A stretch of DNA of 64,000 nucleotides. Origin: Psammoneis japonica (lineage: Eukaryota). Positions 15,182-50,486 of the stretch are shown piece after piece; the stretch's first letter is position 1; each line of letters opens with the position of its first letter. A model generated the notes under the pieces. That model was not told the origin of the DNA, searched no databases, and saw nothing but the letters and a program-made list of their open reading frames with translations. The DNA lies in NCBI GenBank assembly GCA_008632985.1, contig QPGO01000157.1, positions 62,001 through 126,000 of the forward strand, written 5' to 3'. Made by a program: the position numbers and the translations under genes.

Positions 15182-17770
15182 TAGAGACACTGCACCAGAA
15201 TGCACACTGTCGACGGGTGTGTCAGTGAGGTGTGTCCATCAGCAACAAGGCGTGCTTTGTGTCTGCCGTCATGCTTGACATTGCAAACAAGGTGCACCCG
15301 GATCTTCTTGTGTCCTGCTGGTGCGCTGGAGTCCTTGTGGTGTCCGCAGTCATGGAAGACCTCGCACTCATTGAGTTGAGTCATCTCGAGATCTGTTGTG
15401 TCTCCCCACTTGTGGTTGCCATTTTGTTCGTTGAGGGCCAAGGCATGCCTGCAATCCCACGGTGCTTTGCATCTGCACTTGCATCATGGTGCAGTGCAAA
15501 ATGAGCAAAGCTTGGCTTGATTGGCCATGTGGAGTTGTTTCTTCTGATGCAGAGCTGTCTTGCAAAAGTGCTTCCATCCATCAGTTTTGAGGAGGCCATG
15601 CTCACGTGCACAGATGGCACAGGTGATGGGATCATCCTTGGCAATGATGGCAAGGGGCTCAGACGTGATCTCCCCATGTTCCCATTCAAGCATGACTTGG
15701 CAGCTTGACCCTTTCCAGGAGGGGTCGTGAGGTCTCAACAGCCCTTCATGCAACACAATGCAGCAAAATTTCCAGATGGCTGTGTCATCTTCTTCCTGCT
15801 CCATGTGATGCATGATGTTGTTGTGGGCAAGGATCTCTTTGTGTTTGTCATTGTTGACTGAACAAATGAATTTGACCAGGTCAGGGTTGTCACTGATCTC
15901 CCAGTCGTGGTCCTCAACAGCTTTGATGATGCAGGCTCTGTGACACTGTCTGTCCTCTTGTGGGTTCACGAGAAAGGTGCACCCGACAATGTTGTTGGGG
16001 TCAAAGACTGGCATCTCAGGCATCCTGATCTCCTCCCCATCTGATGAATTGGGCAAATCTTCAGAGTCATGGTGGGATTTGATGATGGGTGCAGCAGACT
16101 CCCCATCAGGAGGATCAAGACACAAGTTGCATGTCAACAATTCGCTGGCAGCGGGGTGGACATCAGACCAGTGCAGAATCTTCTGAGTGTCGTCAGAGAG
16201 AATCTTGAAGGTCATTTGATGGCCCACATGTTCAGCAATGCCAACAAAGTGACCACGCAGCTTGCAGGATTCAGACGGCCAGCCCCAGTTGTCCAGGTGG
16301 CAGTGCATGGGTTCCCACCATTGAAAGCAGAGGAGGGGGCTGATGTTGGGAGCAGAGCCAGACAACACTTCGGCAGGGGTGCACCAGCGGAGCTTGGCAG
16401 AAGCCGTGTGGTTGAGCAAGAAGCACACGCACATGAGAGCAAGCAGCCAGGTGCAGGCCAGGGAGCCAAAGCAATCCATGATGGCATTGGCCATGTTCTT
16501 CATGGTTTGGTGACAGTGCTCAGCAAAGTTCTGATGCTGTTGATGGGGCTCACTTTGCCAGCCAGAAATGAAGAGAGCATGCGGGATGCCAAGGACCTTG
16601 ATGCTGATCTCAACTTGAGCATGAACTCTGATGAGCTTGGACAGAGCACCGCAGTTGTGAATGTTGTCCTCAAGGGCATTGACAAATTCCTTGTCTGTCT
16701 TGGTGCCGCACACATTGGTGATGAGTGATTCCATGCCAATGAAGAGCTGTGCACTGGTGCAGCCAGAGTCAATGGCGGGGGTGTCGGAGTGCACTGTGTC
16801 AGTGGCGACGGGTTTGTTGCAGTGACAGATGTTGAGAGCCGGGTTGAATGACTTGTGCACCTTTTTCTGGTGGGTGTTGGCAGGCATGTGAGCGTGTTGG
16901 GTCGCACAATCAAAAGTGCAATGAACAGTGTCCTTTGGGAGGAAGCCAAAATGGGGGTGCAATTGGGTGCAATTTCATGCTCATGGCATTCGTGGAAGAA
17001 GTCACAGGTCGGCAGGATGTGATGATCGAGCACAGGGTCCACAAGCACGGCATTGTTGACAATGTGATGGTGATGACGGTTGCCAAACTCGTCAAAGAGA
17101 TTGGCAGTGGGATCATCCTGGAGGTCTGACACAGTGTCGCACCATTTCTTGTCATCGGCGAACTGGTGGTTGAGTGCGGATGGGTCCCAGGTGTTGTCGC
17201 CAGTGAGGATGACATGAGGCAGGTCGTCCCATTCAGCATCAGTGTGCAGGCAAATGGCAATGCAAGGCAGGCCACCTTTGATGTTGATGGGAATGACATG
17301 GCCATCAATGGTGGTGATGCACTGCAACCCATTGGTGGGGACCTTGATGGACCGATCATTGACACCGTGCTTGTGCCACTCGAGCTGGCCACAGGAATGG
17401 ATGGTCTTGCCCTTTCCAGCGCAAGTGCACTGGTGAAGAATGGCAATGACAGGACCACATTGCATGTGGATGACACCACCGGCAGTGACAATGGGGGTGT
17501 CAACAAGCTGATGGTTGTTGATGCCTTGTGCATCAACCTGTCGATCAGTGCGAGTGATGATGACACGAACATCATCACCAGCAATGCCGCCATTGGCGCC
17601 ACAATCCACCAAAGCTCCTTTGCGTGTGGAAGTGTGAGTCGACGCAGAGCAGATGATGCGGTGAGCAGAGCGACTGCAGAAAGAGATCAACGTTCGCGCG
17701 GGGGCACCTGCGCACAAGGCATGACACAATTCTGTGGCAGTTTGCAGCAGGAGTGTCTGGCATGTCGCAA
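15182..17770 (-). mobile_element. Ty1/copia (CoDi-like) internal remnant: protease, integrase, start of RT; heavily mutated
   Basis: ALVDCGANGG, VATDTVHSDTPAID, WQSEPHQQHQNFAE, VKHDGRHKARLVADG; colinear with the full-length element at 19918-26995. Both TpA and CpG depleted. Confidence 0.92.
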
Positions 17771-17771
17771 T

Positions 17772-17904
17772 CAACAGGAATCATTCGAAAATGTTGCAAG
17801 AGTCACAACTGGCATTTTGCATGAGGAAAAATGCCAAATTGTGTGGAAATGTGCACAATGTCATGTGAGAGGGTGATTGGAGCCAGCAACTTTTCGGGAA
17901 CTCA
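17772..17904 (+). mobile_element. MITE family A, left part (the rest continues at 29315-29502)
   Basis: Starts with TIR CAACAGGAATCATTC and aligns with 36361-36493; the remainder resumes after the inserted TIR element. Confidence 0.75.
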
Positions 17905-18849
17905 GGCACGTTCCCACCCCAACAATTTCGGCCGCAAAACAAACATGGTTTTGTTCTGCACAAAATTCCTGCAGAAACTGTTGTGCAAGAAAAATCGCAC
18001 ATCTGTTTCCATCCTTCAATTTGCAGCCGCAATCATCTTCAAATGGAGACCAGGACAATTAAAAAATGGGTGACAGCGTGCCACTGCACATGAAATTGAA
18101 AAAAGACACAACATCCGCAACATCAAGCAGTTGCAAGAAAGGCAGTTGACAAGGTTGTTGGAGACAACAAGATTGACATCGAAGGATTGTGCACAAAATT
18201 GGTCTGGAACCCAAAGGCAAGCAGTGTGTCACATGCTCGTTCCACGTCGGCACTCGAGTTGACCTTGATGCCACCCTTGCACTTGCTCAATGGTGCAGAT
18301 TCAAGAACTCAGTTGCATCTGGCAGGGACGATTTTCAGATGGAAGCAGTTGACACCAGAGTGCAAATGAAACGCACAAGACTTTTTAAGTTGGTGATGCA
18401 ACAGTGTGGTTTCGACTTTCGACTCGATTGTCTGTCAACCAACCACATTTGACGGTGCAATTCCATCTGCTGCTGCTCTGCACAGTCTTGAGAAATTTTT
18501 TTAGCAGTTTGAAATTGACAGCTTCTGTGGGTCTGTTGCACTCCAGCACTTCCAGCATTGCACTTGCCTTGTGCAAGACGCAATCGCAACAAGAGTGTGA
18601 TGCTGCTGTGCCAGCAGCCCACGCTCCCACAGGTGAAATCACACACTCAATTCCATGTGCACTCAACAACTCCAGGGGTGTTGCATTGTTGCATTTCCTT
18701 GCCAGCTCCAATGCATTTGCCTCGTGCAAGATGCAATTGAAACAAGAACACCGGAGTGACGCCACTCATCCAGCATCCCACACTCCCGCTGATGCAATGA
18801 TGGGCTCAATTCCATGTCCACACAACAGCTCCAGGGGGTGTTGCGTTGT

Positions 18850-19285
18850 GGCACTGCAATGTGTCCAACACCGTCTGCGCCATGCCCATTGCCACCATCT
18901 GCTGGTGCAACACGTCCAACGTCATCTAGCACGCTGCACCCAATGCCACCCATGCCACCATCCACCAGCGCAACACATCCGACGCCATCTGGTGTGCCAG
19001 GCCCATTGCTGCCTGCACCACCATCTGCCAATCCAACACGTCCAACACCATCCAGAGTGCGCCGCACCCGATGCCACCCCTGCCGCCATCCACCAGCGCA
19101 ACACATCCCCAATGCCGTCCAGCGCGCCATGCCTGTCGCTGTCCACACCGCCACCTGCCAGTCCAACACATCCAATGCCGTCCAGTGCGCCACACCCAAT
19201 GCCACCTGGCCCGCTCCGCCATGTGCTTCTGCAACACATCCAACGCCGCCTGCGCTGCACCCAATGCCACCTGCATGCCATGGAC
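18850..19285. repeat. Degenerate ~60-bp tandem minisatellite (about 7 units)
   Basis: Recurring core CAACAC(A/G)TCC followed by CACCC(A/G)ATGCCACC-like tails. Confidence 0.7.
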
Positions 19286-19917
19286 AGTTCCATCTGATGC
19301 GCCAAGCAACGTGCCACAAGAATGGCTCCAAGTGCAGTTCTCAGTCATGCGCCATTGGCAAATCCGTCATTTAAACCAAGTGATGTGCCACCCACAACAC
19401 TGTCAGCGGCTCCATCAAAATGCACCTTCTGCACCATCACACGTGCCATCCGTCACATGTGCCACCCATGACTCCATCATCTGCACCAAGCAGTGCGCTG
19501 TTGTCAACACCATCGGAGCTGCCAAGTGTGGTCCCAAGCAAAGTGCTGTTGTCTGCTCCATGCCATCACTTTGAACCAAGCAACAAGCAATGTGCCATCG
19601 GTTTCTCACAAAATCGCAAGTTTTCACACAGAGCATTCTTCAGATGCATGGTCTTCTGACCCACGGCAACATTCGAATTCTTGACAAAGCCTGATCCACA
19701 CTGGGGGAAGTCTCCAGCCAGCTGCCAGCTGAAAAAGTCTGCTCGTCAGTGCGTTTGGGGGTTTTGCCAGTGCTGCAATTTTTGCACACACAAAAGACGA
19801 CGAGTCTGTCCTGCGTTCCCAACACCCCCCAACGCACAGATTGACAGACTCTTTCAGTGCAAATTCTGCACAAGATTCTTCAGCCAGCAGCTGGCTGGAG
19901 TCTTCCCCCAACACATC

Positions 19918-20189
19918 TGACAGAAATTGAAGGCAAATGGCAAGAATTCAAACAATGACTCCTGCTGTCTAAATGGCAGATGAGTCTCCGCTCAGAGACC
20001 GTTGCAGGAGCCGAAAGACGTGCAAGTCGGCACAATCGGGCTGCTGTTGTCATTCTTGTGAGCCTTGTGGCTCGAAAGCAAACTGCATCGCGCGCGAACG
20101 CGTGGAACTAAAGCACACAAAACTGTGCGCGGCAAACTAAACAGCGCGCGATGTTTCGCGCGCACCCAAATCCTGTTCAAATCCTGTCA
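19918..20189 (-). repeat. 3' LTR
   Basis: Near-identical to 26720-26995; TG...CA termini. Confidence 0.95.
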
Positions 20190-23100
20190 CTCCCCAGTTT
20201 GCTTGAGGAGCTGCAGAAACAGATTCGACTTCGGATGGGATGAAGTTCCAGAACATGAGAGGGCGGAGAAGGTCCCAGATTTGGGAGTGACCCCAATGCT
20301 TGCTGAGAATGTCAGCAGGATTGCGGGAGCCCTCGATGAAGTGGAACTCAAGGCAACCAGAGGCAATTGCCTCACGCACACGGTGGAACGACAGTGCAGT
20401 GTGTCGCTTGTGTAACTTGGAGTGCGGGATGGTGGCACTGTCTACAACCGACTTGTTGTCACCGAACATGCAACTGACACTGCGGATCGGGACGCCAAGG
20501 CAGCGCAGAGTGATGCGCAGGTCGACAATCTGCTCGACACAATTCCTTGCGGCAACAAATTCAGATCCGCAGGTTGCAGTCTCCACGGTGGCTTGTTTCT
20601 TGGAGAACCAATCAGCCGGGAATTTGTTGAGGAAGTGGAGCATTCCCATGACAGAGCATCCGGTGAGCATGCAATGGCACAAGTTTGCATCGATGCAGTG
20701 GGTGGCAGTGACGAACTTGCCAAGGGGCGGTGGAGCGTCCTTCGGGATCATCTCTTCTGCTTCACCATGCACGGAATGCATCCATTCACAGGCCGGAGCA
20801 GGGAGATCCGAACAGTCGGGCTCTTCCGTGCGAACGCGGAGAGCACCGTGTCGCATCTTGGAGAGGTGCCCACAGACGCGTTTGGCACGATCCAAGTGGC
20901 CTTGACGGGGCGCAGCTCGGAAGCTGGAGAGTGACATGACAGCCGTGGTGGTGTCAATTCGACCAAGGGACACTGCCCATTGGAGTGAACCAACAAGAGG
21001 CTGGAGCTTGTGAATGCCATCGGGTCCCAGTGGTTCGGAAGTGTCCAGCTCGGGGTGGTCACCCTTCTCTGGAGGTGACAGGGCGTTGGTGGCAGGTTTC
21101 TCCCCAAACAATCGGGTGCAGCTGTCGACCATGCACTCGATGCACTTGCGCGGAGACAGGCACAAGGTTCCGTCGGGGTCCCGGGAAAAGTCGCAACCCA
21201 GATGGAACTCAATGGGTCCCGCACCCTTGAGCTTGAACTTGCACTTTTCCGTGAGAGTGTCGATGAAAGATTGAGGGTCCTTCATGGCAATGGCGAGGTC
21301 GTCCACATGAATGCCAATGTGTTCACAGTGGTCGCCGTTCCTGCGCATCCAAATGTCGGGTTCGGCGCGGCAGGGGAAGAAGCCTTCAGCTCGCAGGCAG
21401 TCGGCGAAGTGCTCGTGCCAGCGGAGACCGGAGCTGCGAAGTCCATGCAGTGCCTTGTGGATGACAAGGATGTGTCCTTCGAGTTTGCCAAATTCGGGTC
21501 CAGCTGCAATGTAAAGCTTCTCCTTGGTGGTGGCTTCAAGGCAGGCATTGCCAATGTCGGTGGCCCATGTCTCCAACTCGTTGAGTTCGGCCAGGAAAAT
21601 CATCAGCCGAAGGCCACGGAGGGAGACTGCTCCGGAGCAAACACTGTCGACAGGTGCATCCGTGAGGTGCCCGTCGGCTGCGAGTCGTGCCTTGTGGCGA
21701 CCGTCATGTTTCACGTCGAATGCCAGGTGCACTCGGATCTTCTTGTGTCCCGCAGGAGGAGTGGAAGACTTGAAGGGCCCGCAGTCATGGAAGACTTCGC
21801 ATTCGTCGAGTTGGTCCATCTCGAGATTAGTTGCGTCTCCCCACTTGCGGTTGCCGTTGCGTTCGTCCAGTGACATGGCATGTTTGCAGTTCCGGGGAAC
21901 TTCGCATCCGCACTTGCAGCGAGGTGCAGTGCGGAAGGAGCGAAGCTTGGCTTGGTCGGCCATGCGAAATGGCTTCTTTTGGCGCCTCGCGACAGTGCGG
22001 AACCGCTTCCAGCCATCCGTGTCGAGGAGTCCGTTCTCTGGTGCACAGATGGCACAGGTGACGGGGTCGTCCTTGGTGATGATGGCAAGGGGCTCGGACG
22101 TGATCTCCCCACTTTCCCATTCAAGCATGATGTTGTAGCTTGAGCCTTTCCAGGTTGGGTCGTGAGGCTTCAGAGGTCCTTCGTGTGATGCGATGCGTCG
22201 AAATTTCCAAATGGTGGTGTCTTCGTCTTCTTGCTCAATGTGATTCATGATGTCATTGCAAGCAAGGACTTCCTCGCATTCGTCATTGTTGACAGAGCAG
22301 ACGAACTCAGTGAGCTCGGGATTGCCGTTCACTTTCCATTCGTGGTCTTCGACGGCCTTGACGATGCGAGCTCTGTGGCGTTGTCCATCCTCTTGTGGCT
22401 GCATGAGGAAGGTGCGTCCAATGATGTCTTGCGGATCGAAAACTGGCACCTTGGGTGTCCTGATCTCCCCATCAGCAGAATCGACGGGGTTGTCGTCATG
22501 GCGAGATTTGATGATGGGTTCAGGTGGCTCCCCATCAGGAGGATCAAGACGCAGGTTTCGAACGGCAGGATCGGGGGCAGCGGAGCGAACGTTGGACCGG
22601 TGGAGGATCTTTTGAGTCTCGTCAGATGGGATCTTGAAGGTCATCTGGTGGCTGACGTGCTCAGCAATGCCAACAAAGCGTCCACGCAACTCACGGGATT
22701 CGGACGGCCAATCGGAGTCATCGAGGTGGAAGTGCGCTGGTTCCCACCAGTGAAAGCGAAGCAATGGGCTGATGTCCGGGGTGGATCCAGTGAGAGTCTC
22801 GAGGGGCGTGCGCCAGTGGAGACGTGGGGATGCTGTGTGGTTGAGCATGAAGCACACGCACATGAGCGCCAGGAGCCATGTGTGGGCGGGCGAACCAAAA
22901 CGGTCCATGACAGTGTTCGCCATGCGCTTCACGGTCTGGTGTCGACGTTCGGCAAAGTTTTGGTGTTGCTGGTGAGGCTCACTTTGCCAGCTGGAGATGA
23001 AGAGGGCGCGCAGGATCCCGAGCACTTTGTTGCTGATCTCAACTTGAGCACGGTCGCTGATGAGTTTGGATGGTGCACCACGTTCACGGATCTGATCCTC

Positions 23101-25782
23101 GAGTGTGTTGACAAACTCTTTGTCCGTCTCAGTGCCGCAGACGTCAGTGACGGCAGACTCGGTGCCAACAAACAGTTGGGCGCTGGTGCAACCAGAGTCG
23201 ACGGCCGGGGTGTCGGCACAAACGGTGTCAGTGGCGACAGGCTCGTTGCGGCGGTGCACATTGAGGGCGGGGTTGGGTGATTTGCAGGCCTTGCGAAGGT
23301 GTGCACCGGCGGGCATGCGGGCGTGCTGCGTGGTGCAGTCAAAAGCACGACGGACCGCATCGGCGGGTGGGAAGCCAAAGCAAGGCCGAAGAGACTCGAA
23401 GGGGGGGTCCTTGGGCTTCACAGTGCGCTCCGGAGGTGGAACGTCAACGCCCGTGGGGTCACTCGCATGCAGATGACACTCGTAGAACACGTCGTCGTTC
23501 GGAATGAGGTGATCATCGAGGGCGGACGCGTGATCGTCAGACAAGGAAGCGGACAAGATGGTCTCGTTGACAACGACACGGTGACGGCAGTTGCCGCATT
23601 CGTCAAACAGGTTGGCAGTGGGATCGTCCTGTGGGTCAGAGATCGCGTCGCACCACTGGTCGTCGTCAGTGACAGAGTGATCGAGGACGGAAGGGTCCCA
23701 TGTGTCATCACCGGTGAGGATGACATGGGGCAGGGTGTCCCATTCGGCGTCAGTGTGGGGGCGCATGGCAACACAAGGCAGGCCAGCCTTGACGTCAATG
23801 GGGATGACATGGCCATCAGGAGTGGCAGTGCATTGCAAGCCGTTGGGCACCTTGACAGAGCGATCGTTGACATCCTGTTTGTGCCGTTCGAGCTGGCCGC
23901 AGGAATGGATGGTCTTGCCCTTTCCCGTGTGTGCGCACTGATGGAGGATGGCGATGACGGGACCATGCTGGGTCTCAATGACGGCACCAGCAGCGACAAT
24001 GGGGATGTCCACCAGTTGATGATTGTCAATGCCCTGAACGTCGACTTGGCGAGAGGTGCGTGCGATGACGCGAACGTCGTCGCCAACGATCGACTAGAGC
24101 GCCAGTGCGTGTGGAGCGATGAGCAGAGGCAGAGTGAATGACGTTGTGGTTGTTGACGCGGCGGTGAGTGCGGCCGTTGAGCTCTGTGTTGTCTGCAGAA
24201 GCTGGCGGGGTAGAGGAAGCGGCGGATGGCCCTGGTCGACTGGCATTGGGGGCTTGGTTAGGAGACAACAGACGTTGCAGATCACCGGGTGGCAGTGGCT
24301 TGCGCTTGGTGAGGTGCGCCAGGATGGGATCATCCGAAGTGGCGTCCACATGTGCAGCGGAGTCATCATGGTCAGCAGGAGTCGTGTTGAACAAGTTGAC
24401 ATCACCGTCACTCCCAAGGTGTTGGTCGTGAAGGTTGGCCGCAACAGACTCGTGGCAGTTGCGGGCTCGCGGGTTGCGGGGAGGCGGGCGAGAGTGCTCA
24501 AGGATGATCGCCTTGGAGGAATCGGGCAACGAATCCCAGAGCCGTTGGTGGTCGGGAGGGAGACGTCTCCATTGGACACCGGCGAGGCTGGGACCACGGG
24601 TGCAGGCAGCATTGGCTTGAAGGACGTCAACGTCGCTGTCAATGTCGTAGAACACATCGTCGGACGGTTCCTCGGAGTGGATGTCGTGGGCGTGTGTGGT
24701 GCGTCGGGGAGTTCGAGGTGTCGTCTTGGGTTGAAACGTGCTGTCGTGCTGAGCTGCCGCGGAGAGGAGCAAGCCACAGCATTGATCGCATGTGAGGCTC
24801 TTGCCACTCTGCGCACGATGCTGATCAGCTTGGTTCTTGACAGCACGGAGTTCCTCGACAGGGTGCACGGCATTCTCGAGCATGACGCGCTTCTGTCCTT
24901 CAGAGAAGTGGCAGCTGGCGGGGATGAGTGCCTTGCACTTGCGCAACTGATCTTGCCAATGAAGGATGAACCCGTGGGTCGGACCTTTCCAAGTGCCATC
25001 ACCAAGACGTGCGGTGGTGAGGTGCGTGAGCAGGGTGGAGGACTCGATGGATGCACGGGTGGAGGCAAGCGCGCATTCAGACAAGGAGCGGCAGACGGTC
25101 TGTGCATCAGAGGACCCCACATTTTCGCGAATGAGAGCCTTGCCCTTGTCGGTGAGAAGGATGCGTTCGAAGACGGCGAACATGTGCTTTTGCTGTTCAG
25201 CAAAGAGCAGTTTGTCTTCGGGGCTGGTCGGTTTGTACGACGAGTCTAGAATGCACTCGACGTCTTGGGCACGGGCTTGTGCCACAAGTGAGGTGTGCCA
25301 AGTGTGCCACTGCTTGCCGGATTTGAGAGCCGTGAAAGCGGTGGGATCACGCTTGATGCCTCGCTTGAAGTCTCGCACCGGGTCGCGTGCCTTGGTCGGG
25401 TTGGTGACATGTGGAGGTGCAAGGGGTGAGCTGCCGATGGACACAGAGGACATGCAGTCCGGGCTGAGGCGGCAGGCAAGGAACTCGTCATGCGTGAACA
25501 AAGAGGAGTCGTTGGCAACGTCAAGACCTTTGTGTGCTTTGACAATGTGCAGACTGACTGGTGCTGCTGACATGTTCTTATAACCACGAGGCAAAGGGAT
25601 TGCATCAGTGCCGTTGTCGCACACAAGCCAGTCGATTTGGGACGGTGTGAACGTGAACAGTTCCTGATGCGAGTCCGTGCCGTCTTGGGCCAAAGCCAAA
25701 CGAAGAGGACTCCCAGCACCTTGGGCAAGCACGGTGGAACGTGCTCGAAACCATCGATTTGTTGCTGACGAGTGAGAACCAT
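20190..25782 (-). pseudogene. copia gag-pol, Tyr-depleted
   Basis: Starts MVLTRQQ; FKRGIKRD gag motif; small deletion in the protease motif (ALVDR..GDD) near 24090; integrase SDRAQVE and QNFAER; RT HVDD; RNaseH GSEFVAA, FGDNKSV, NPADILSK. I count 3 Tyr in the 1291-aa ORF. Confidence 0.93.
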
Positions 25783-26719
25783 GGTGGACAAAAGTGGTGT
25801 CAGGACAATCAATTCTGATTGGGAAGCGAGGGTGGACTTGAAACTCGGGTGAGAACAGACTTGACTTGAAACAGACTTGACTTGAAATCTTGAACTGTCT
25901 TAAAATCAGAAGTCGCCGGGCTTTGCTGTCCCGTTCGTTGTCAAGTGCTAAACTTCCCATCCGGTCCGCAGAGTTGTGCCGGCACGTCCGAACCCGCAGC
26001 CAGCGGCGCTTTGGGTTGCTTGCGAGCAGAGCAGCGGGTTGTAAACCCCTGCAGGCAAGCTGACTGGAGGTGGACAAGACCCCCGAACCGTTCTTGTTTT
26101 ATGTCGGTTGGATTTCCCGATCAGGCTGGCCAGTTGACGTGGGCGTCAGGCGCTGTGGACGAACGAACAAACGCGGGAAAGCACCCTCGCCCCAACGCAG
26201 GCTGCAATCACGGCTGCTTGCTCTCACAGTCGTCCTCGTGGACCTGGCAGAACTGCAGAGCACCAGCAGTCCGGGGCAGATCAGGTGCAATGGACTCGGT
26301 GTGCTTGCAGAGTGGTGGCAAAACCGCAGTCCGAAGAGTGGGCACAGGTTCTTGGCCGTGAAGATGTGTGTGTGCATGTGTCTTCAGCGACGAAGATCCT
26401 TGAACATGTGGGGTTCTTGACCGTTAACCGATGAACAGGCACATCAAGGGATGAGGATCAAGGATGGACTTGGATGTGACCGTTGAATGCATGTCTTCAG
26501 CGATCAAAGGCAGCACAATCAATCCAGATGTCCAGCGGCGAGGAGACTTGACAGTGACGTTAACTTCCTGCCGATGCCCTGGCATTGAATGCGCACAGAC
26601 TTGCCGATGTGTGTGGGGCACATGCGGAGGTCCACGCAGAATTGAAATGGCGTCGTTGGTAAATCAACGACGACGATGGCGGTTGCTCAATGGGTTGACA
26701 ATGAGCAAGACTGTCAATC

Positions 26720-31410: not shown

Positions 31411-31766
31411 TTTCCAAAAAATTCTTTCTTTCGTTGTCGAGGTCGCGGATTTGGTCGCGGATGACGTTTGCCCCCCCGACGCGAAGGCTTGCGCGGCGGA
31501 AACACGAGTCCTCCTACGTACAATTCTACGAGTGTCTGCTTCAGTAGTATGTCGACATTCTTATGTTGTTTCTACGCGGACGGATAAAGGTAAGTTATGA
31601 CGATCTTTTTTCCCGCCATTTTCAATTTTTTGTATGATACCGCTCGCTCGTCATATCGTCGCGTTGTTGACGCACCGAACTCGTTTTGGTTTCTGTGGCA
31701 CAAGTGGTGACTGAAACAGGAAGCACCCTACGGTAAATACCACGGTTTTCAACGCGCCATCCCACA

Positions 31767-33972
31767 ATGGCGGACAACAGTAGCCCTGGGTCCCAAGTGG
31801 CGGTGAAAGAAGAACGAGAAGAAGTCGTTCATGAAACGAGCACCCGAACGAGTACGTCATCCGTCCCTGCTGCCAGCGGCATGCAGCAAGAACGTGGCGT
31901 TGCTGGCGGGGGGACGAGCCAAGATACATCGCGAGTCAACGGACAAGGAATGTGGAACGCGTGGAAGCGAAACTTTAAATCGCCTCTATTGGCCCTGTTG
32001 GATTTGTTTGACAACGCAATTGATGCATCGCTCGTGATTGATGAAGAAGCCTTTCACTTCAAAGGCCGAGGAAGAATCCATGTTATGGGTGATAAGGATG
32101 CCGAGGGAGTCTCCAAAGGGGTTTCAATCATCAATAACTGTCACAGCAGAATCCCTCCAATCGAAGAGGTCCTTGAGGTATTCAAAAGTAGCAAAGGCTC
32201 TCAGGCGATCGGCGAAAACGGCGTCGACACGAAACAAGCATGCGCTAGTTTGACCGATCTCAGCTTTGTAATGACTCGAAACAGAGACACTTGGGGCTTG
32301 GGTGTGATTGCTGCAGAAGTTCAGCGAGTTGATGGTATTGTTCTCCCATCTATTACCTTTCGTCCGAACCGTGAAGATCTTTCTCGTCAAGTCAAGACGA
32401 ACCCGGTACTGTAAGTGCGGCTTCTCAGGAACAATAACTGTTCTGAGACATGAATATACTGACTCTTGATCTTGTTTCGGATTTGTATGATTAATGTACC
32501 GCAGGGCCTTTGCTAAGTGTGTGTCCTGCTATGGCGATGGAGATTTCGAGACAGGTATTATGCGGCTCCTTACACATTGCAACGCCATGACAAGCCATCA
32601 GTGACGTAGGGCCCTAGTGATGACCACGTGTTTCTTATGGTACTCCATCAGCTACGCCACGGATCAGAATCCCTTGTCAGTAGCGAGAGCAGTGACAATG
32701 AAGGAAATATTGATTACGGCCTTCGAGTGCAGCACTTGATGCAACAGCTGACCGATGAGTTGCCACGCCAGTACCTTCACATTCCGTCTGAGTTTGGCAT
32801 TACTGTCAATCACCAACAGATCAGGTTCCAGCATTGGGAAAGAAGAATGGTCGAAATTACCAGCTTCCTGTGCAAAGTAAACCCTCATGATGAGTGGAGC
32901 ACGGCAGAGGAATGGGAAAGCCCTACAGAATCGATGAGCCTGCGTGTGTATTGTGGGTTCGATCCAGCAAGACTTGACGGAGAGTCTTCGTCCTCGTTGT
33001 CTCTTTATGTTCACAGCAGGCATTCTGGTCGTCTCATTACGGTGGCACCCGATGCTCGCAACACGTTGGGCCTAAACAACTCTGGGACGACCTTTGGCCA
33101 AGGGCTCACAGTTATTCTAGACGATTACATGTCAACATTGCCTCTAGACCCTACAAAGCAGGGACTTGCGTTTGCACAGCAGGCTGCAGGCGGGGTATAC
33201 AAAAAGAATCTATTCGCCTGGCTTGGTGTCTATGCTTCTCTTTACTACAATCGGCGCCTCGAGAAATTTGGCGGCACCAAGGGCGAACTCACGAAAGGCG
33301 TGCAGCAACAGCTACAGGCCGTTCAACGTCTTCGCGACAAGGACAATGTGAAGTCTTTCATGTGCGGAAAATTCACATGCTACGATTCTCTTAGATTCAA
33401 ACAATATTCCGACAAGAGCATTAGAAAATCGAGTAGTCCGTGCAAAGGTGTGTTTGCTTCGCGAGTTCTGAACTGTTTTACTTTCTTCGTCCGTCGCTCA
33501 CCACCGTCGTCGTATCTATTTTTTGTATAGTTACTCTAGGCGCAGATTCTCTGGTAAACCTGGATCCGCACCATGAAAACTTCGGACGCCCAGTAAGAAA
33601 CGGAAATCCACGAGTGACGACTCCACTCTGCCTCCAGCAAGGGCGACACCGCCTCCTGTATGGAGTCCGCGGCATTTACTAATGGCAAATTCACAGAGCG
33701 ATCGGTCGGACACCGGTGCCGTTTCCGTGTCCCCTGACAGCCGTGGTAGTAGTGCGCATGCAGAGCCGACGAATGTGTGTGCAGACAGTCGTCGTATTGC
33801 GTCGCTTAGCAAAACAGTAGAGAGGCATCGAGAGAGGAAGAAGCAATATAAAGAGGTGATCTCGCGTCAGCAAGAATTAAAGATTGCTTAAGGCCACAGA
33901 CAGAGTCTTGAGAACGAGATTAAAACCTTGAAGCAGAGGCAGCATCGTTTCATGAATTCTCCTGAGAAGTGA
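31767..33972 (+). pseudogene. MORC-like GHKL ATPase, duplicated pseudogene copy
   Basis: Copy of 57800-60066 with GENGVG->GENGVD, TGG->TGA stop near 32602, an 8-bp insertion at 32607-32616 and deletions in the last exon. Confidence 0.85.
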
Positions 33973-34363
33973 GATCACAATGAGAGTTCCGTCGTGCAGT
34001 GTGTCTAACAGCGACTGCATCATTAATGTGCTCGTAAACCCAGTTGGAGTTCAAAGTTGCTTGTGCATGCTGTGGCAGTTTGAATTGCTTTTTATTGCTT
34101 TGTTGTGAATGTCTTAGTTGTCTTTCGCTGCTCGTGCCATTGTTCGGCACCATCAGGCCAACACCGTGCTCTTTTGATCGAATCAATCGTTTTCAGATGA
34201 AATCAGAAATCAGAATCTTGATCGATCGCACCGCTGCAAGGAGACAAAAGACCAAAGGCGACAACGTCTTCGCTATCTTCCCATGCAGCACCACTTGTTA
34301 GTGTTGGTTGTCGCGTTAGCTGATCTGTAGAGACTCGATTGTGTAAGGTTCATGGCTGAAAAA

Positions 34364-34983
34364 ATGGCAGGAACTCCGAGCGCAGCGTCTCCTTCCACTA
34401 ACCCGTCTGGATCGAGCACCCACCCGCCGCACCTCCGTGTCGTCAAAGCCGTTGTCCCACCACCATCTCAGGCTCCCGTGGAAACTCCTCAGAAGCAAGA
34501 GCCCGGCGACTCTCCTGGACGAAAGACCCACAGCAAGGTCCCAGTGATTCGCCACTCGGCGCTCTTGCCTAAAGAAGAGCAAGAGCTCGAAGAACGCCGG
34601 AGGAAAGAGAGGTTGGATGAGAGACTTGAAGTGCAGAAGCAGCATCGTCAAGACAAGGTTGACTTTCATTGCAGGAACGAGTCTCCCATGATTAGCCGAC
34701 AGCTGTCACAGCACAGGATGCAGCTGCCAAACAGTCGCGGAACTTTCCTCACAGCATTGGGCCGGAGTTCCCAGAGCACAAGCGCAAGTCTGATGAAGCA
34801 TCTTTTCTCCCAATTCGTCCGTTGCAGGAACCCGCTGACAAACGCCACCGTATCGAACAAGATGACCAAAGCAATGCCGGTAATGAGAAAAAGCCATGGT
34901 GGAATAACCTTTACTCGAAGGCAGCGATTTGCGTTGTTGCTCTCATTGTCGCGGAGCGTCTCCTTTTGCGTTCCAAGAACTGA
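34364..34983 (+). pseudogene. Small putative tail-anchored protein, frameshifted duplicate
   Basis: Copy of 56745-57364; frame changes after RNESPM. Confidence 0.55.
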
Positions 34984-35547
34984 GCATGAGTGGGCCGGGA
35001 TAATACAGGAGGGAAATGACACTTGGGAAAGCCTTTGGCGCGAGCATTGATTCTTTGAATTCGCACCGACTATCTGTTCTTTGATGCATGGAAATGAATC
35101 TCTCCCACATCTGAAAGTTGATCTGCGGCAATGTGTAGATTTGCGTTTTTCCTTCTCGGTTGATAGAAGCGAGGCACAGCGGTAACTGTGCATGCTGCTG
35201 TCGTCCCACCTTTCGTGCACTGCACTTTTGCACAACCAATCTCGAAAGTACATGCTCATCAGCAATGATGGAAGGTGGTAGTAAAGAATGACAGGCATTT
35301 TTAAATTCTAAAAGAAAAGCAGGGAAAATGGCTGCTCCTGATTGAAAGGGTAAGAAATCATCATGCACTGTTTTCTGGGTTATCTAATGTACAGACAGCC
35401 CGTAGCGTAACAGCAATCCTATTAACGTCATTTAAGAATCAAAAAAGCAATCTAGGAAAAGCGGCTGCTCCTGGTTGAGAGGGTAAAAAATCATCATGCA
35501 AGTTTATCCCATCCGTCAAGTTTCTTTCGCACTGCCGAGATCCTGGG

Positions 35548-36100
35548 TCACACCACTCGTCTGTTGACCAGAAAAGATCCTAGACACAAATGAGCCGCAG
35601 CGGAAACGGCTCCTGGTGAGGATGCAAGGGGATGAGCTCCGACGGATCTTGCCAGCATCACCGCCAAGGCTGAATTCTGCATCCCAGTTTCGATGGAGAT
35701 GGTCCACGCCGTTTTCTTGGTAAACCCAAGTCCCAACCTGGGCACCACATAACCCACTCCAAAGCCGATAAGATGAAGCACCACCACCGAGAGCACAATT
35801 TGTGGCAGTGACCCAGCTGGCCCAACGGATGACGACAAGAGACTTGATGCATTGTCAGCCACCACTCCACCGCAAATTAGAGACACCAACAGAACACTTC
35901 CAAACGGTGTGAATCGAGCCAATTGATTGCTGAGCTTGGGTGCCTTGGTTTTCACAGCCATTCCCAAAATGACAGGAAGCAACACTGCCCTCGCCATCAC
36001 ACTGCACAGGGCAATGCTGCTGATGCTGATGGCACCACTTCCTGGCTGGGAAACCAATGGCTTGACTAGAAGTGGTGTCACCACAGAAGCCAGAATCGTG
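35548..36100 (-). pseudogene. 3' fragment of a bile acid:sodium symporter, TpA/CpG-hypermutated duplicate
   Basis: Aligns to 55298-55830; ETGMQNS motif. Confidence 0.9.
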
Positions 36101-36360
36101 CCTCTTGGTTGTTGGATCCTCCAACTTGCAAGAGCCGACAGAATTTAAAAAAGGAGGATTCTTGTGTTGAAGAGAGGTTTCGCAAGCCCCAACTCGAAAG
36201 AGCGGTGCCTGCGCAGCCACCACGGGTGTGATGACAAGTTGAAGATGATGTCATGAAGACATGTTTTAAAACATGTGTCATTTCACAATGACACGCACAA
36301 TGCATTCCTTCACGAAGCAAAAATGTCACACTCTCCGAGTTTTGACATCGCCGGTCATTG

Positions 36361-36692
36361 CAACAGGAATCATTCAAAAATGTTGCAAGAGTCACAATTG
36401 GCACCCCGCACAAGGAAAAACACCAAATCGTGTGGAAATGTGCACAGTGTCGTGCGAAAAGGTGATTGGAGCTGGCAACTTTTCGGGAACTCAATTGAAG
36501 TGTCATCTGACCAAAGGCATTTTGATTTGCATGGTGAAGAGCAACGCCTTTGGTCAGATGAGACATTTCAATTGATTTCCCGAGAAGTTGACATTTGAAC
36601 GCGGATGGGTGGACAGACTGAAAACAATCATTTCTGGCACTCTTCCACACAATTTCCACGTGATGACTCTGAGAGCCGAATGATTCCTGTTG
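36361..36692 (+). mobile_element. MITE family A, complete copy (~330 bp)
   Basis: 15-bp TIRs CAACAGGAATCATTC / GAATGATTCCTGTTG; internal hairpin at ~36491-36575. Confidence 0.8.
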
Positions 36693-36730
36693 TTTTTGAC
36701 AACCGGTCATGAGCTGTTTTCTGCACATTT

Positions 36731-36946
36731 CAACAGGAATCATTCGGCTCTCAGAGTCATCACGCAGAAATTGTGTGGAATGGCACCAGAAACAATTGTT
36801 GTCAGCCTGCCCACCCATCCGCACTCAAATGTCAACTTCTTGGGAAATCAATTAAAATGTCATCTGGCCAAAAAAGGCACTGCTCTTCACCATGTAAATC
36901 AAAATGCCTTTGGACAGATGACACTTCAGTTGAGTTCCCAAAAAGT
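36731..36946 (-). mobile_element. MITE family A, partial inverted copy
   Basis: Reverse complement of ~36478-36692, starting with the TIR. Confidence 0.8.
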
Positions 36947-37752
36947 CACTGTGGCTGGATTCGTGTCTCAGAAATTTGGAGCAGATTTCTGTGCAATTGG
37001 CGCAACACGTCATCAAGTTGAAGTTCATTTTGTTGATGTGTTCCAGCTGCATGTGAACCAAGTCATGCACAAAAATGACATTTGTGCAATTTTTGAAAGG
37101 CCCCCAGCTTGCGATCGATCTTTCACCACCAAAAGCATGGATTCAAGCAAACACAAATGTTTTGCAACACTGGCAAGACTCGTGTGAGTGTTGCCATGTC
37201 ATTGTTGTTGTGCCATCTGTGTTTTTCATTGTGTTGAAAGATTTGCAACACAGTGGATGATTTTCGGCGAAAATGTTGCCGTCATTTGGGTGTCACCCAA
37301 ACACATCATTCTGCAATGCTGCTTGGTGGGTTTTCTGCCTGCAAAGAAATCTCAGCACAAATCTGCTGATGTGCAATCAGCATTGAGTCCACTGAGGAAG
37401 TTTGTGATGCATGTCCCATGTGGACTTGAATGCCCCTCAAAAAACTGTTTAAATGTTCGTGCTCTAGAAGCCTGCAAAAGTCAATCCGTCCAAGCATTTT
37501 GCATGAAAATGCTGCATGCACTAAAAGACACATAAATTGCACTCAAAATCCATTGTCGTTTTGTGGGTCACCTGGGACTGGAACACGTCTGTTGGCGGGA
37601 AAACAAAAAGCACGAGATTTGTCACGCACCCGGTTGCTCGATGATGGTGCTTGCCATTCTCCCAAAACCCATGACTTTTCATGTTGCGGCACAGAGCGAC
37701 CTTCTACAAACATCAGCAAAGCCCCCTCTGCCCCGCAACATAAAAAATCACA

Positions 37753-40700
37753 ATGAGTGACCTCAGAAATTCATTCGTTGCCAAGCACATGCAACTCGTC
37801 TTCGGGGACAAGCATCTTCATGACCATTGGATGCCGGTGGACCTCTGGGCAGAACATTGCAATGCCAAATTTGGTTTTTCCAATGAGGGTCTCCGCGCAA
37901 TGGGCAGAGAGACAAAGAAGACATGCAAAAACCGAGCTGGAGTGTCAAACTTGACAACAACAAACAACATTGTTGGCGATGGTGTGAGTCTGCACAAGAC
38001 AGAATGCAGTTGTCAGATCAATGGCAAACAAGGCAACCACACATTCTTTCTTGTTGCTGTTGGGGTTCCAGCTGATTTCTTCATCCTCCAACAACTGGGA
38101 ATGACAGTGTTGAAGCTTGGCTGCAAAGTGGGGTGGTCTGGAAACAAGTTGGGAGAGACTCAGTGCAACGAGCAGAAATGCTCACAGAGCATTCGGAGAT
38201 GGATCCTGACATCCAGAACACGGAGAAGGCACAGTGAGCAAAGAAAAAGCAGTGCACTTCAAATGAAAATGAAAATGACGACATGTCCATTGAAGATTTG
38301 GAGTCCACCAGGCAAGACAATGTGCCACGATTCGACCATTGGGATTCTGCTCGAGCCCGTTGCATCTTTGCTCCGCCCTCTGTTTGCCCATCTGATGTCA
38401 ATGTAAAGGCGGCTGCACAAGATGGAATCAACATTCGATCAGCTGTTGTCAGCCATGCCCAAGGGTGCAAATCTGTGTTGCCTGGTCAGGACGACAACAA
38501 TGTGGCTGCCGACTGTGAAAAGGTTGCCATGAGGCATCGTGTGCTGCACATCATGGTGGCACTTCAGACAGTGCTTGACAATCTCAAAGGCAAAGGAAAT
38601 GAGATTGAAGGCAACATGAGTTGGGGTGAGTGTTGTCAACATGCTGTCACCAGACTGAAAGAAGATGGCATCACGGCTGTGTCCAACTGGCAGATGGTTT
38701 AGCGGCGGCATCGTCATTTGGCCGACGCCGGTGATTGCTTTCCTCAAAGCCACAACCAAGGCAAACAACAGCTTCCATCCTTCTTTGCCAAGAATCCTGA
38801 GGTTGAGAATGCATTTGCTTGACACGCAATCAAAAACTTGAAGGAACTGTCGGTCGAATTGATGCACGAGCACCTCCACCAAAAAATCACACCGGCTTTC
38901 ATGCCAAACGCAAAGAAAGACGTTGTGGTGGTGGATGATGAAGACTTTGAACAAGCCATTGATTCCATGGGTGAGTCTCCAGCACTCAGCACAGAAGAGG
39001 AAACTGCAGAGGAAGAAGCCAAGAGTTTGTTTCTCAAACAGCATGAACTCCGCTCACTTTCCATTTCTGCAGCAGCATGCTGGATGCATCTCCTGGGATT
39101 TAGATGCACAAACAGAATGAAAGGATTTCATGTGGATGGTCACGAGAAGCCCGCCACAAAGTTGCATTGAAAGAAGTTTACAAAGGAGTGTCTTGAGTTG
39201 GAGAAAAGGTGCTGCAGGTGGATTCAATTGCCCTTGGACCAGGCGACCGAGCTCATGAACCAATCATCAGTTCTGCATCAGGGTGAAAGCTCTGCACTCA
39301 CTTGGGATGGCAATGTGTTCATCAAGTTTCATGTGGATGACTGCAGCGGTTTCCATGATGTGATTGCGCAATCCGATGACTTGAATGCCAAGCGGCATGG
39401 CGGCCATCAGAGTTTCCACTTTCCCACTGGTGAAAAGCCCATCATCATGTGAGGACAAGATGAGGCTGTCTGTGAACAATTCCTGTTGACTGAGAAGGCG
39501 TGGGTGGGACCCAATGGCGAGATGGCTCTTGTCCCGAAAGACAAAGGTCTGGGTGTTGTGCTGTCTCCACTCACATCTCATGAGTTTGGTTTGTTGTGTG
39601 ATCTCAACAAGGAGCTGCTCAAGTGAGTCAATGAAAAGAGAAGTGAAACCAAGCACAATGACGAGAAAGCAGCAAAAGAAGCCAGGAAAACAAGCCAGGA
39701 AAACAAGCAACAAGAAGGACTTGGAGAAGAGCCCATTCCTGGTGAAATTGGAGCATGGCTCCAATGACGAGGGCTGTTGGAACTGCAATCACATGGCGAC
39801 ACAGTTGGAAGACTGTGTTGATGTGTTGGACGAAATGTGCCCAGAATTTGAGCACGTGTTCTTCTTTGATCACTCGGCAGGTCATGCAAAGCAGAGGGAG
39901 GACAGCTCATCAGTTGACAAGATGAACCTGGGCTGGGGCAGGAAATGCAAAATGAGAGCAAGCAAGCAGGCTCACAGACAAATGCACTGGACAGCATGAC
40001 AATGCTCACAGACTGCAAAGTGGTGAGACACAAGCAATGGCATTCCAGGAGGAAGACAAAGGGCCTCACCTTGTGGCTCTGGAAGAATGACAGTGACGAA
40101 AGCACGACATTGTGACGAGGGAAATCAAGGCCGTTGACAAGCTCAGAGAAGAGCCAGAAAATGATCTGAAGCAAAATGATGCAAGCCATGCAGCTCTCAA
40201 GGGTGCAACCAAAAGGGGTTTGCAAGAAGATTGCAAAAAAGCTGGCATTCCCACAAAGAAGACCATTCCAAAGATGGCACCTGGTTGGATGGGCAAGCCC
40301 AAAGGATTGCTGCAAGTCTTGGTTGAACGTGGGTTGATTGGCGCAAAAGCCTGAAACATGGAAAGGGAGGGACAAAGGACAAGTGTGGGAGCTGCAAGGA
40401 AAATGCCAAGCCCGCAGAGCTGCTTGCCTCCTGCAAAGATTTTGCAAATGAAACAACGCAACTTCAGCATCATGTGAAGCTGCTGGGGGTCCGAGCAATC
40501 TTGACTCCAAAATGCCACATGCCCTCAACCTGTCACAGAAATGAGGGAAAGACAATTTCAAAAAATCAGTTGATTGTTGCTTGTCAGAGGAGGTGTTGAC
40601 GCTTGAGCGCATCTGCAAGTTTGCCAAACGCACAAGACAGTGCACCCAAGCTTGCCATGTGATTGACAATGGACACATGGAGGACACAGAGAGGGTCCAT

Positions 40701-40800
40701 GAATTTGGACCTGTTGTGCTTGACAAGATGATCAAGATGTTGATTTTGAGTCCAAGTTCGTTTGCTGCGTTGCGGAGAACGAGGTTGCAGCGATCTTGGA
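37753..40800 (+). mobile_element. Degenerate IS630-Tc1-mariner-like transposase
   Basis: GQDE, WVGPNG..LVPKDKG, EHGSNDEGCW (from EYG...GYW), FFFDHSAGH, PKGLLQVLVERG, DFANE, TPKCH. Many stops and frameshifts; the segment after PKCH appears deleted. Confidence 0.8.
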
Positions 40801-40984
40801 GTGAGTTTCGGAGCAAATTTTCAAAATCGTGCAGCCACAGCATGATTGCACGGGGACATTTTTATGACGTCAACATGACAATCACTGTCATTGTTAGAGA
40901 GCATGACATTTCATTTTATGCCAGCTCACTGTGCGTGCATCTCTACACCAAGGAGTGTCACGACAAATCCAGTCACAGCTCTAA

Positions 40985-50425: not shown

Positions 50426-50430
<5 letters not shown>

Positions 50431-50476
<46 letters not shown>

Positions 50477-50486
50477 CTCTCTCTCT
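50431..50486. repeat. (CT)n microsatellite
   Basis: Direct inspection. Confidence 0.95.

Follow-up and report, generated by a model that had tools for sequence, protein, structure and literature searches.

Apparent TA-to-TG/CA hypermutation of transposons and adjoining duplicated DNA in the diatom Psammoneis japonica

How can one dinucleotide be almost erased from the transposons of a diatom while the genes beside them keep it at an ordinary frequency? The question is raised by a 64-kb stretch of the Psammoneis japonica genome (GenBank assembly GCA_008632985.1, contig QPGO01000157.1, forward-strand positions 62,001 to 126,000), called the window below and numbered from its first letter, in which the transposons lying between about 15 and 41 kb have lost nearly all of their TA. 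A preliminary description of this DNA had proposed that a mutator inactivates transposons here, in a manner resembling the repeat-induced point mutation (RIP) of fungi with its polarity reversed. Our analysis supports a localised process that converts TA to TG or CA and destroys the proteins of several transposon classes; it does not support a RIP-like trigger by duplication. That a real, targeted mutation process lies behind the pattern we regard as very probable. The explanation that we favour as a whole, at a probability of roughly 0.6, is a fast mutation of TA in silent-chromatin DNA, presumably through adenine deamination and guided by marks shared with silencing.

The TA observed/expected (o/e) ratio was computed in 1-kb bins along the window, with the flanks supplying the reference rate. 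It fell to 0.00–0.14 over 15001–31000 and 36001–41000, and ranged from 0.44 to 1.09 outside the interval first delineated, 15182–40860. That interval proved uneven: two blocks within it are nearly TA-free, 31.4–33.8 kb has normal TA, and 33.8–35.6 kb is only partially depleted. Block 1 (15183–31336) retains 41 TA (o/e 0.048) and Block 2 (36267–40862) retains 13 (o/e 0.041), as compared to o/e ratios of 0.637 and 0.630 in the two flanks. Summed over both blocks, 54 TA were observed where the flank ratio predicts 741 (Poisson P ~1e-238), which bears out the central claim of the preliminary description, that TA is almost absent across the transposons and normal in the flanking genes. Not a single TA occurs in 15182–18060 (2878 bp) or in 39179–40863 (1684 bp); gaps without TA in the flanks reach 320 bp at most. 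The internal part of the full-length copia retrotransposon, in which about two dozen TA had been estimated by eye, holds 21. The borders of the depleted DNA are abrupt at 15182, ~31400, and 40863, with normal TA density directly outside 15182, and at three of the four block borders the mutated zone ends within a few bases.

When all 16 dinucleotides were compared between blocks and flanks, only TA (0.63 to 0.05) and CG (0.97 to 0.66) decreased and only CA and TG increased. AA, AT, and TT were stable (AA/TT o/e 1.13/1.13 in the flanks and 1.19/1.16 in the blocks), and TC o/e went from 1.13 in the flanks to 1.09 in the blocks. GC content was 0.54 in the blocks as compared to 0.47–0.48 in the flanks. 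The deficits of TA (814) and CG (348) in Block 1 sum to 1162, against a TG+CA excess of 1246; the corresponding deficits in Block 2 are 304 and 138, against an excess of 400. Because the summed deficits of TA and CG approximate the excess of TG and CA, two superimposed processes are at hand, a near-total loss of TA and a partial loss of CpG. The CpG loss is partial and ordinary-looking, a second and slower signal beside the TA loss; in the older elements CpG o/e is 0.40–0.65 (0.46 across Block 2), consistent with CpG decay driven by 5-methylcytosine (5mC). The balance of TG versus CA varied within about +/-0.25 per kb and was patternless. Open reading frames (ORFs) of at least 100 amino acids numbered 34.7 per 10 kb in the blocks versus 21.1 in the flanks: since TGA is the only stop codon possible in TA-free DNA, long meaningless frames are abundant there, such as a nonsense frame of 427 amino acids on the minus strand at 39581–40861.

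The direction of change can be read from residues that are conserved among relatives of the mutated elements. The complete copia element spans 19918–26995 and carries, on the minus strand at 20140–26098, a gag-pol region in two open frames (24029–26098 and 20140–24093) with a weak match to RVT_2 (E 1.2e-20). Relatives of this element numbered more than 1800 at E ≤ 0.001, and the 120 listed (polyproteins of up to ~1900 amino acids, 57–69% identity) were used for composition. Tyr makes up 2.9–5.0% of residues in all 120 listed relatives as compared to 0.2–0.4% in the two frames of the window, while Cys is ~1% in those relatives versus 2.5–3.8% in the window frames, where His stands at 5.2–5.5%. 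An alignment of 25 copia homologues has 689 columns in which at least 80% of them agree, and the window differs at 99 of these. Thirty of the 32 conserved Tyr residues are changed, 19 to Cys (TGY), 8 to His (CAY), 2 to Phe, and 1 to Leu; each other residue is changed in no more than 31% of its conserved columns. The 69 changes at residues other than Tyr include 6 that are expected from TA within the codon (3 Leu to Pro, 2 Val to Ala, 1 Ile to Met). The catalytic YVDD motif of the copia reverse transcriptase (RT) reads HVDD in the window, and the consensus motifs QYAYTGKGK, ATYGSEF, HWGY, and GYW appear as QCAHTGKGK, ATCGSEF, HWGH, and GCW. Thus the replacements of Tyr by Cys or His quoted in the preliminary description, like those of Val by Ala and Leu by Pro, were all recovered against the homologue consensus.

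Two other elements point the same way. The frame related to the RT of long interspersed nuclear elements (LINEs) has no Tyr in 570 amino acids versus 1.7–2.6% in 15 homologues; its conserved Tyr residues became Cys or His in 3 of 3 cases, and changes of Arg to Gln, His, or Cys also occur. In the fragment of a repeat protein at 39490–39996, both conserved Tyr residues became Cys. The relatives have normal Tyr, and therefore these families are not natively TA-free and their TA became TG or CA, a change of A:T to G:C. The conclusion that elements of several transposon classes had their proteins destroyed while neighbouring genes were spared is supported. The strand outcome at the copia Tyr codons showed no coordinated runs (12 runs versus 12.3 expected), such as processive editing of a single strand would give.

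The timing of the process is recorded in the long terminal repeats (LTRs) of the full copia. These lie at 19918–20189 (minus strand, with TG...CA ends) and 26720–26995 (minus strand), and the element is bounded by a perfect 5-bp target-site duplication, ACATC, at 19913–19917 and again at 26996–27000. Both LTRs of one element are identical at insertion. The present pair is separated by a 4-nt indel and six substitution events: three CA/TG doublets, one TA/CA, one CG/TG, and one T/C. A CA/TG doublet between the LTRs arises because a single ancestral TA was resolved oppositely in each. If about half of the sites can be expected to resolve differently in the two LTRs, the three doublets point to about seven lost TA, which together with the three surviving TA would roughly restore a normal TA density for 272 nt. 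Essentially all TA loss in the LTRs would thus postdate insertion, and meanwhile only two unrelated substitutions would have accumulated. These differences support a process that acted on integrated chromosomal DNA. CA/TG doublets were also the commonest doublet difference between the truncated and the full copia (n = 49; next type, n = 17), and they account for 16 of 72 difference events in eight short repeat pairs, which are not independent of one another in that some pairs share arms.

An internal control is provided by an inverted segmental duplication of ~5 kb, 31422–36099 versus 55299–60428, which aligns in three pieces at 89.9%, 81.8%, and 92.5% identity. One copy lies in the gap that separates Block 1 from Block 2; the other, unmutated (55296–60428) and containing an intact SBF transporter gene (55074–55889), was used as the ancestral reference. 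The part of the transposon-side copy at 31422–33800 (partner 60428 to ~58000; 89.9% identity over 2508 nt) has normal TA. The part at 33800–36102 is partly hypermutated, with a truncated SBF gene copy at its end (35565–36102; Pfam SBF) that is 91.4% identical to the intact paralogue over 538 nt. The intact gene has 19 TA in this region, of which the fragment reads 8 as TG, 5 as CA, and 1 as TC and keeps 5; the opposite change, from TG or CA to TA, was seen once. Of 14 changed TpA bases, 13 underwent a transition and one a transversion. A bias toward TpA among transitions of A:T, proposed as a check in the preliminary description, was found here: 13 of 38 bases in TpA changed in this way versus 5 of 216 elsewhere. 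The corresponding figures for G:C are 10 of 60 bases in CpG versus 6 of 224 elsewhere, with 10 of 30 CpG lost.

The two copies fared differently along the duplication. Over ~1.5 kb at 31.8–33.3 kb, where they are 96% identical, TA was lost at 8 of 54 sites versus 6 of 53 in the partner, and CpG at 3 versus 2. Over 33.8–36.3 kb, TA was lost at 42 of 85 sites in the transposon-side copy versus 9 of 51 in the partner (Fisher P = 2e-4), and CpG at 26 versus 8 (P = 0.003). Within the duplication, then, mutation is confined to the copy embedded among transposons, and CpG decays faster in the very zone that lost TA. The process can reach, at lower intensity, ~2.3 kb into DNA that is probably dead and is not part of a transposon. 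As the 96%-identical segment is unmutated in both copies, duplication alone is no trigger, and the one-sided loss beyond it indicates that targeting follows silent chromatin rather than duplication as such. On this evidence we consider it rather probable that the process is guided by chromatin and not by homology.

The same signature was sought in other reads and at other loci. Four TA-free stretches of the window, 16754–17295 (542 nt), 18891–19613 (723 nt), 27169–27792 (624 nt), and 27804–28579 (776 nt), are reproduced without a single differing letter by independently assembled contigs of a public sequencing run (X1), the longest record of which is 315 kb. Position 21071 reads TG in the window and TA in 17 of 17 X1 contigs. 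Contigs from X1 and from another run, X2, disagree with the window at numerous single positions across 13001–15000, and several transposon stretches are identical; the differences in the gene flank suggest a second haplotype or strain in the reads.

Among 78 copia loci compared from public metagenome contigs, 75 have a TA o/e of at least 0.4. Two are TA-free, L071 (2766 nt) and L074 (1168 nt), with o/e ratios of 0.02 and 0.06 and Tyr contents of 0.1% and 1.0%. They are separate contig records, 95.8% alike, and belong to another family, sharing 66% identity with the copia of the window; the RT motif of L071 reads VCVDD. Since the two differ mostly at CpG, they descend from one common, already-mutated ancestor. 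A third locus, L015 (2759 nt), is partly depleted (TA o/e 0.31, Tyr 2.6%). TA erasure therefore appears to be lineage-specific. The number of CG per kb in the young copia of the window exceeds the baseline from unrelated copia loci, which we take to be a matter of family composition and not a sign of double hits.

Neither the surviving nor the mutated TA are random with respect to the following base. Forty-six of the 54 survivors are TAA or TAG; by tetramer, TTAA is enriched 5.7-fold and CTAA 3.3-fold among them, and ATAT and ATAC are absent (chi-square P = 8e-14). Survival was 0.11–0.14 for TAA, 0.07 for TAG, 0.03 for TAC, and 0.01–0.02 for TAT, in the same order whether the flanks or the 75 unmutated copia loci served as baseline. 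In the partly mutated zone, changes per adenine relative to the paralogue were 15/42 for TAC, 10/37 for TAT, 9/44 for TAG, and 4/31 for TAA. The individual lines of evidence on context are modest, yet they agree that TA followed by a pyrimidine is preferred.

The remaining features of the depleted DNA can be placed in this frame. Block 1 begins with the pol part of a truncated copia (15183–17580, minus strand; 73–75% nucleotide identity to the full copia, CpG o/e ~0.40). No TA occurs in 15183–18060, and the junction with a host ORF at ~15181/15182 falls exactly at the last TA. Next comes a TA-free, low-copy segment (18061–19917; 4 TA in 18061–19961, o/e 0.038) that was the target of the full copia insertion; its stretch 18337–19670 has a flank-like summed depth in X1, so that "low copy" is a hint only, contig depth not being copy number. 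A CA-rich minisatellite with periods of 63 and 128 nt occupies 18885–19206 in this spacer. Beyond the copia, its insertion site continues as TA-free repeat-derived DNA (26996–29168; 7 TA, o/e 0.049, CpG o/e 0.54), followed by the LINE-like RT fragment, a C-terminal half (29172–30881, minus strand), which has 27 longer homologues (best E 6.5e-99), several of them carrying PF00078. Block 2 contains an inverted repeat resembling a foldback element or miniature inverted-repeat transposable element (MITE) at 36478–36946, with a related arm at 29314–29502; its arms differ by CA/TG doublets.

The plus-strand fragment at 39490–39996 belongs to a widespread repeat protein family with 760 relatives at E ≤ 1e-3, the long members being ~860–1140 amino acids; its consensus GYWxYxHM...FLFDHSxGH reads GCWNCNHM in the window. 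No Pfam family was found in any of the 10 relatives scanned, and the fragment looks like an unclassified transposase-like family. The earlier naming of element classes was thus upheld for the two copia elements, the LINE-like RT, and, on structural grounds, the foldback/MITE-like repeat, but an ITm transposase was not confirmed. A Pfam search of the 165 ORFs of at least 75 amino acids overlapping 15000–41200 placed only RVT_2 and the SBF fragment above family cut-off, such profile searches being blunted in the blocks by hypermutation and false frames. Searches of Rfam anywhere in the window and of the viral_contigs collection gave no match and no relative, respectively.

The flanks hold ordinary genes, including a MAP kinase, GlcNAc transferases, TMTC, HAD, M50B, and NmrA. 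The best named relatives of the MAP kinase are from the diatoms Fistulifera, Pseudo-nitzschia, Fragilaria, and Amphora (73–79% identity), so that on this single gene the host groups with diatoms. Of the 39 flank ORFs scanned, all within the window, none showed a deaminase domain. The transposon region stands between two GlcNAc-transferase genes (PF11397), at 1655–2848 and 3213–3519 and at 42125–43234 and 43280–43584; they share a 307-nt stretch at 76.5% identity, an older duplication with normal TA in both copies. The only 1-kb bin with a TA o/e above 1 is 50001–51000 (1.09), in which TG+CA is below 0.8; a (TC)n microsatellite lies at 50430–50486, and tandem repeats of 21 and 41 nt just upstream, at 49835–49950.

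The mutation itself, its polarity, its timing, and the pattern of its targeting follow from the data; its chemistry is what we propose. DNA apparently held in silent, probably cytosine-methylated chromatin undergoes very fast, dinucleotide-specific mutation, its targets being the transposons of every class found together with ~2.3 kb of the adjoining dead duplicated gene segment. Each 5'-TA-3' becomes either TG or CA, every site resolving independently, and the process comes close to saturation, with ~95% of TA gone. No new stop codons are made; Tyr and other TA-containing codons are lost and the elements die by missense, their frames remaining open. The chemistry may be that an enzyme deaminates adenine, on either strand and within T-A-(pyrimidine), to hypoxanthine, which is then read as G at the next replication. 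The candidate agent is a TadA/ADAT-type deaminase, the native tRNA target of which is U-A-C-G, and it would be recruited by the silencing marks that also direct cytosine methylation. We advance an adenine deaminase as the agent tentatively, at somewhat less than even odds. The context has TadA-like features (an invariable T at -1, TAC and TAT as the most favoured sites, TAA as the least), and by this resemblance, and nothing more, the process may be said to work like a TadA/ADAT enzyme.

In the available parts of the sources, wild-type TadA depends on UACG and the evolved TadA-8e still prefers UA (PMC12296453), and DNA activity is reported for a few ADAT2 proteins, BjADAT2 and TbADAT2 (cited in 10.64898/2026.01.13.699255). 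In TadA and ADAT2-ADAT3 it is likewise an A after U or T that is deaminated, as in the best contexts here, TAC and TAT. Unlike the process proposed here, the natural enzymes, as those sources present them, act on a tRNA loop, with activity on DNA coming from laboratory evolution or confined to those few ADAT2 proteins. Action of TadA/ADAT type on chromatin-embedded double-stranded DNA, if that is what occurs here, would be new.

The preliminary description knew of no account of such a process, which no longer holds. A preprint on the chlorarachniophyte Bigelowiella natans (Mettrop et al., 2026, bioRxiv 10.64898/2026.01.13.699255), which we cite here from its available portion, reports a TpA-only, A:T to G:C hypermutation of viral inserts. 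Mutation-accumulation lines of that alga yielded 302 nuclear single-nucleotide mutations, of which 231 lay within two viral inserts; all but one of those 231, or 230, were A:T to G:C changes, every one of them at TpA, and only some of the lines acquired them. The B. natans genome contains 124 TpA-poor clusters, RT and DDE domains are enriched among its TpA-poor genes, and its authors propose ADAT2. On that portion of the account, the likenesses to our window are close. TpA alone is affected in both, giving TpG or CpA by strand; the changes are almost only A:T to G:C transitions (here Cys or His in 27 of 30 Tyr changes, and 13 of 14 in the SBF fragment); foreign or selfish DNA is the target and mutation elsewhere is normal (here with a flank TA o/e of 0.63, and with 2.3 kb of dead duplicated host DNA also affected); and the outcome is clusters poor in TpA and rich in CpA+TpG, with RT and DDE Pfams there among the TpA-poor genes.

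The differences, within the same portion, are of host, degree, and detail. The host here is a diatom, a stramenopile, unlike B. natans, a rhizarian, and the inserts there are mildly depleted (Rho 0.45; one region TA-rich), unlike the ~95% loss here. Beyond what is described there, the window offers LTRs and a target duplication that place the changes after integration, borders sharp to the base pair, spread into a dead host gene copy, a co-occurring CpG decay, and a preference for a 3' pyrimidine. The phenomenon, first described in 2026 from an unrelated alga, thus gains a new instance that is far more saturated and tells more about mechanism. For diatoms, a literature search found no report of a TA-erasing signature, most subscription journals lying outside its coverage.

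The polarity is opposite to that of RIP, 5mC decay, and APOBEC editing, as had been stated: TA is lost, and TG and CA are gained. RIP acts on C:G to give T:A, mostly turning CpA into TpA, and so makes TA, stop codons, and AT-rich DNA; it needs duplication and mutates both copies, employs a RID-type cytosine methyltransferase, and acts before meiosis. AID/APOBEC enzymes produce C to T or G to A in TC, CC, or WRC contexts, in a strand-coordinated fashion, on single-stranded replication intermediates before integration. Like RIP, which disables transposons of ascomycete fungi by transition mutation (available in part: PMC7296669, PMC2621366), the process in the window consists of permanent, dinucleotide-specific transitions that disable transposons within the genome, much faster than background, and leaves a compositional island. 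Unlike RIP, it destroys TA, gains CA and TG, raises GC content, makes no stops, and leaves open frames commoner. As with AID/APOBEC, at work in which is a host deaminase, selfish DNA is hypermutated in a short sequence context; unlike there, the changes are A:T to G:C, on both strands, and after integration, and the excess of C:G to T:A in the window is concentrated at CpG with TC o/e unchanged. Decay of 5mC at CpG differs in that it cannot remove TA.

Could the thymine of TpA, rather than the adenine, be the base attacked? A TET/JBP-type dioxygenase would then make 5-hydroxymethyl- or 5-formyl-uracil (5hmU, 5fU) in silent chromatin, the product mispairing with G to turn T into C, a change seen from the opposite strand as TA to TG. 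5-Formyluracil does mispair with G. The counts presented here suit such an attack equally, TA being palindromic, and a precedent exists in another lineage of the stramenopile-alveolate-rhizarian (SAR) group: in dinoflagellates a TET/JBP enzyme makes 5hmU, which takes the place of T by preference in TA and TC and is linked to the silencing of transposons (PMC11572971, available in part). We nevertheless judge it unlikely. The dinoflagellate base is described, in the part of that source available, as an epigenetic mark and not as a mutator; 5hmU itself pairs with A; TC, a target there, is not depleted here, which is a mild argument; no report of 5hmU or 5fU in diatoms was found in the literature examined; and the TA-pyrimidine preference matches the native TadA target, as a resemblance only. 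Equally unlikely, in our view, is that duplication itself is the trigger as in fungal RIP, homology being recognised and chromatin irrelevant. In its favour, the TA-free blocks coincide with DNA present on many X1 contigs, summed X1 depth rising from ~100–170 to thousands or more at 15002–15668 and coming back down at 31677, and the mutated SBF fragment starts on its left (35565) where the duplicated piece of highest conservation ends. The 96%-identical segment at 31.8–33.3 kb, untouched in both copies, argues against it, as does the partly mutated zone, where only the transposon-side copy was affected although RIP mutates both; a weaker counterexample is the TA-free stretch at 18337–19670, whose flank-like X1 depth is contig depth and not copy number.

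A dedicated enzyme might also be dispensed with if an error-prone polymerase such as Pol eta acted on silent chromatin, its errors at WA giving A to G at TA. The error spectrum of Pol eta includes A:T to G:C transitions at TA, and the co-occurring CpG decay could recruit patch repair; but targeting of WA should strike AA, and AA/TT are untouched, near-saturation is hard to reach in a young element with only two non-TA substitutions between its LTRs, and a single transversion was found among the 14 changed TpA bases of the SBF fragment. We consider this quite improbable. Rather less credence still is due to a sequencing artefact, in which intact TA sites carry a modified base that is misread as TG or CA. 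Tyr loss, doublets, and paralogue asymmetry would all appear alike under it, and there is no record of the sequencing platform used for the assembly or for X1; yet X1 contigs of up to 315 kb point to accurate reads, which reproduced the four TA-free stretches exactly, a TA-free copia of another family stands on two separate metagenome contig records, all 17 X1 contigs read TA at 21071, and a base read as G by a sequencing polymerase would pair so in the cell too. The B. natans changes, moreover, arose de novo in Illumina-sequenced lines, according to the portion of that preprint available (10.64898/2026.01.13.699255). It is very improbable that ADAR- or ADAT-like editing of transposon transcripts, fixed by reverse transcription before integration, produced the pattern. 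The 5' U preference of RNA adenosine deaminases does match TpA (10.64898/2026.01.13.699255; PMC12296453; both available in part). Such editing, however, would affect one strand, before integration, and only retroelements, unlike the window, where CA/TG doublets distinguish the two LTRs of a single integrated element, both strands are affected (19 Cys versus 8 His) without strand runs, and mutation extends to a foldback element, a low-copy spacer, and a fragment of a host gene. Least credible of all is a TA content that was low in these families from the outset, owing to selection or codon habit. Nothing beyond the composition itself speaks for this; a check on whether related copies are natively TA-free, proposed in the preliminary description, gave a negative answer, as Tyr is normal in all 120 listed relatives, the catalytic YVDD has become HVDD, 75 of the 78 related loci have a TA o/e of at least 0.4, and the paralogue gives the direction of change.

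Several observations weigh against the explanation that we favour, a fast, chromatin-guided deamination of adenine in TA. The young full copia has a TA o/e of 0.08 but has retained its CpG (o/e 0.91), and the chromatin state is read from CpG decay alone. The right border of Block 1 adjoins unmutated duplicated DNA with no leakage into it. Eleven of the 78 metagenome loci (L001, L008, L014, L019, L023, L028, L055, L062, L070, L072, and L073) are CpG-poor (o/e 0.05–0.50) with normal TA, presumably reflecting methylation decay without TA erasure in other hosts; by the same token, TA loss is not a by-product of methylation decay, and the two processes are separable. The direction of change in the duplication assumes that the intact paralogue holds the ancestral state. 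On context, the contrast between pyrimidine and purine 3' of TA in the partly mutated zone is modest (P = 0.04), as is the sense-strand outcome at Tyr codons (TAY), 19 Cys versus 8 His (P = 0.05); that outcome is 5:5 where the opposite strand also has a 3' pyrimidine and 14:3 otherwise (P = 0.10), and the order of 3' bases is not reproduced in L071 and L074, which together offer only 14 trinucleotide counts and 7 TA sites. Since TA is its own reverse complement, all of the data fit an attack on T equally, and ADAT2 is, to our knowledge, universal, so its presence alone explains nothing. Finally, run X1 is possibly the source data of the window's own assembly, with its platform not on record.

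If the favoured explanation is true, it would place a second 'RIP', of opposite polarity, in a major branch of eukaryotes. Some consequences are practical. Gene finders will call false genes in TA-free DNA. The divergence of LTRs no longer dates insertions, four of the six LTR substitutions here coming from TA erasure, and the independent resolution of TA to TG or CA makes copies ~4–5% different at once, inflating the apparent diversity of a family. The existence of two unrelated hosts makes the enzyme findable by comparing TA-erasing with non-erasing lineages, the latter represented by 75 of the 78 loci above. It is conceivable, if on balance doubtful, that diatoms and chlorarachniophytes share an old, chromatin-guided defence, in which silenced or methylated DNA attracts a natural adenine deaminase that works on T-A-pyrimidine in double-stranded chromosomal DNA and quickly erases TA from transposons and integrated viruses, active genes being spared within a few bp. 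Diatoms are key primary producers of the ocean, and some species can be transformed and crossed. Should the agent prove to be a natural DNA adenine deaminase, it would be the missing natural counterpart of the adenine base editors made in the laboratory.

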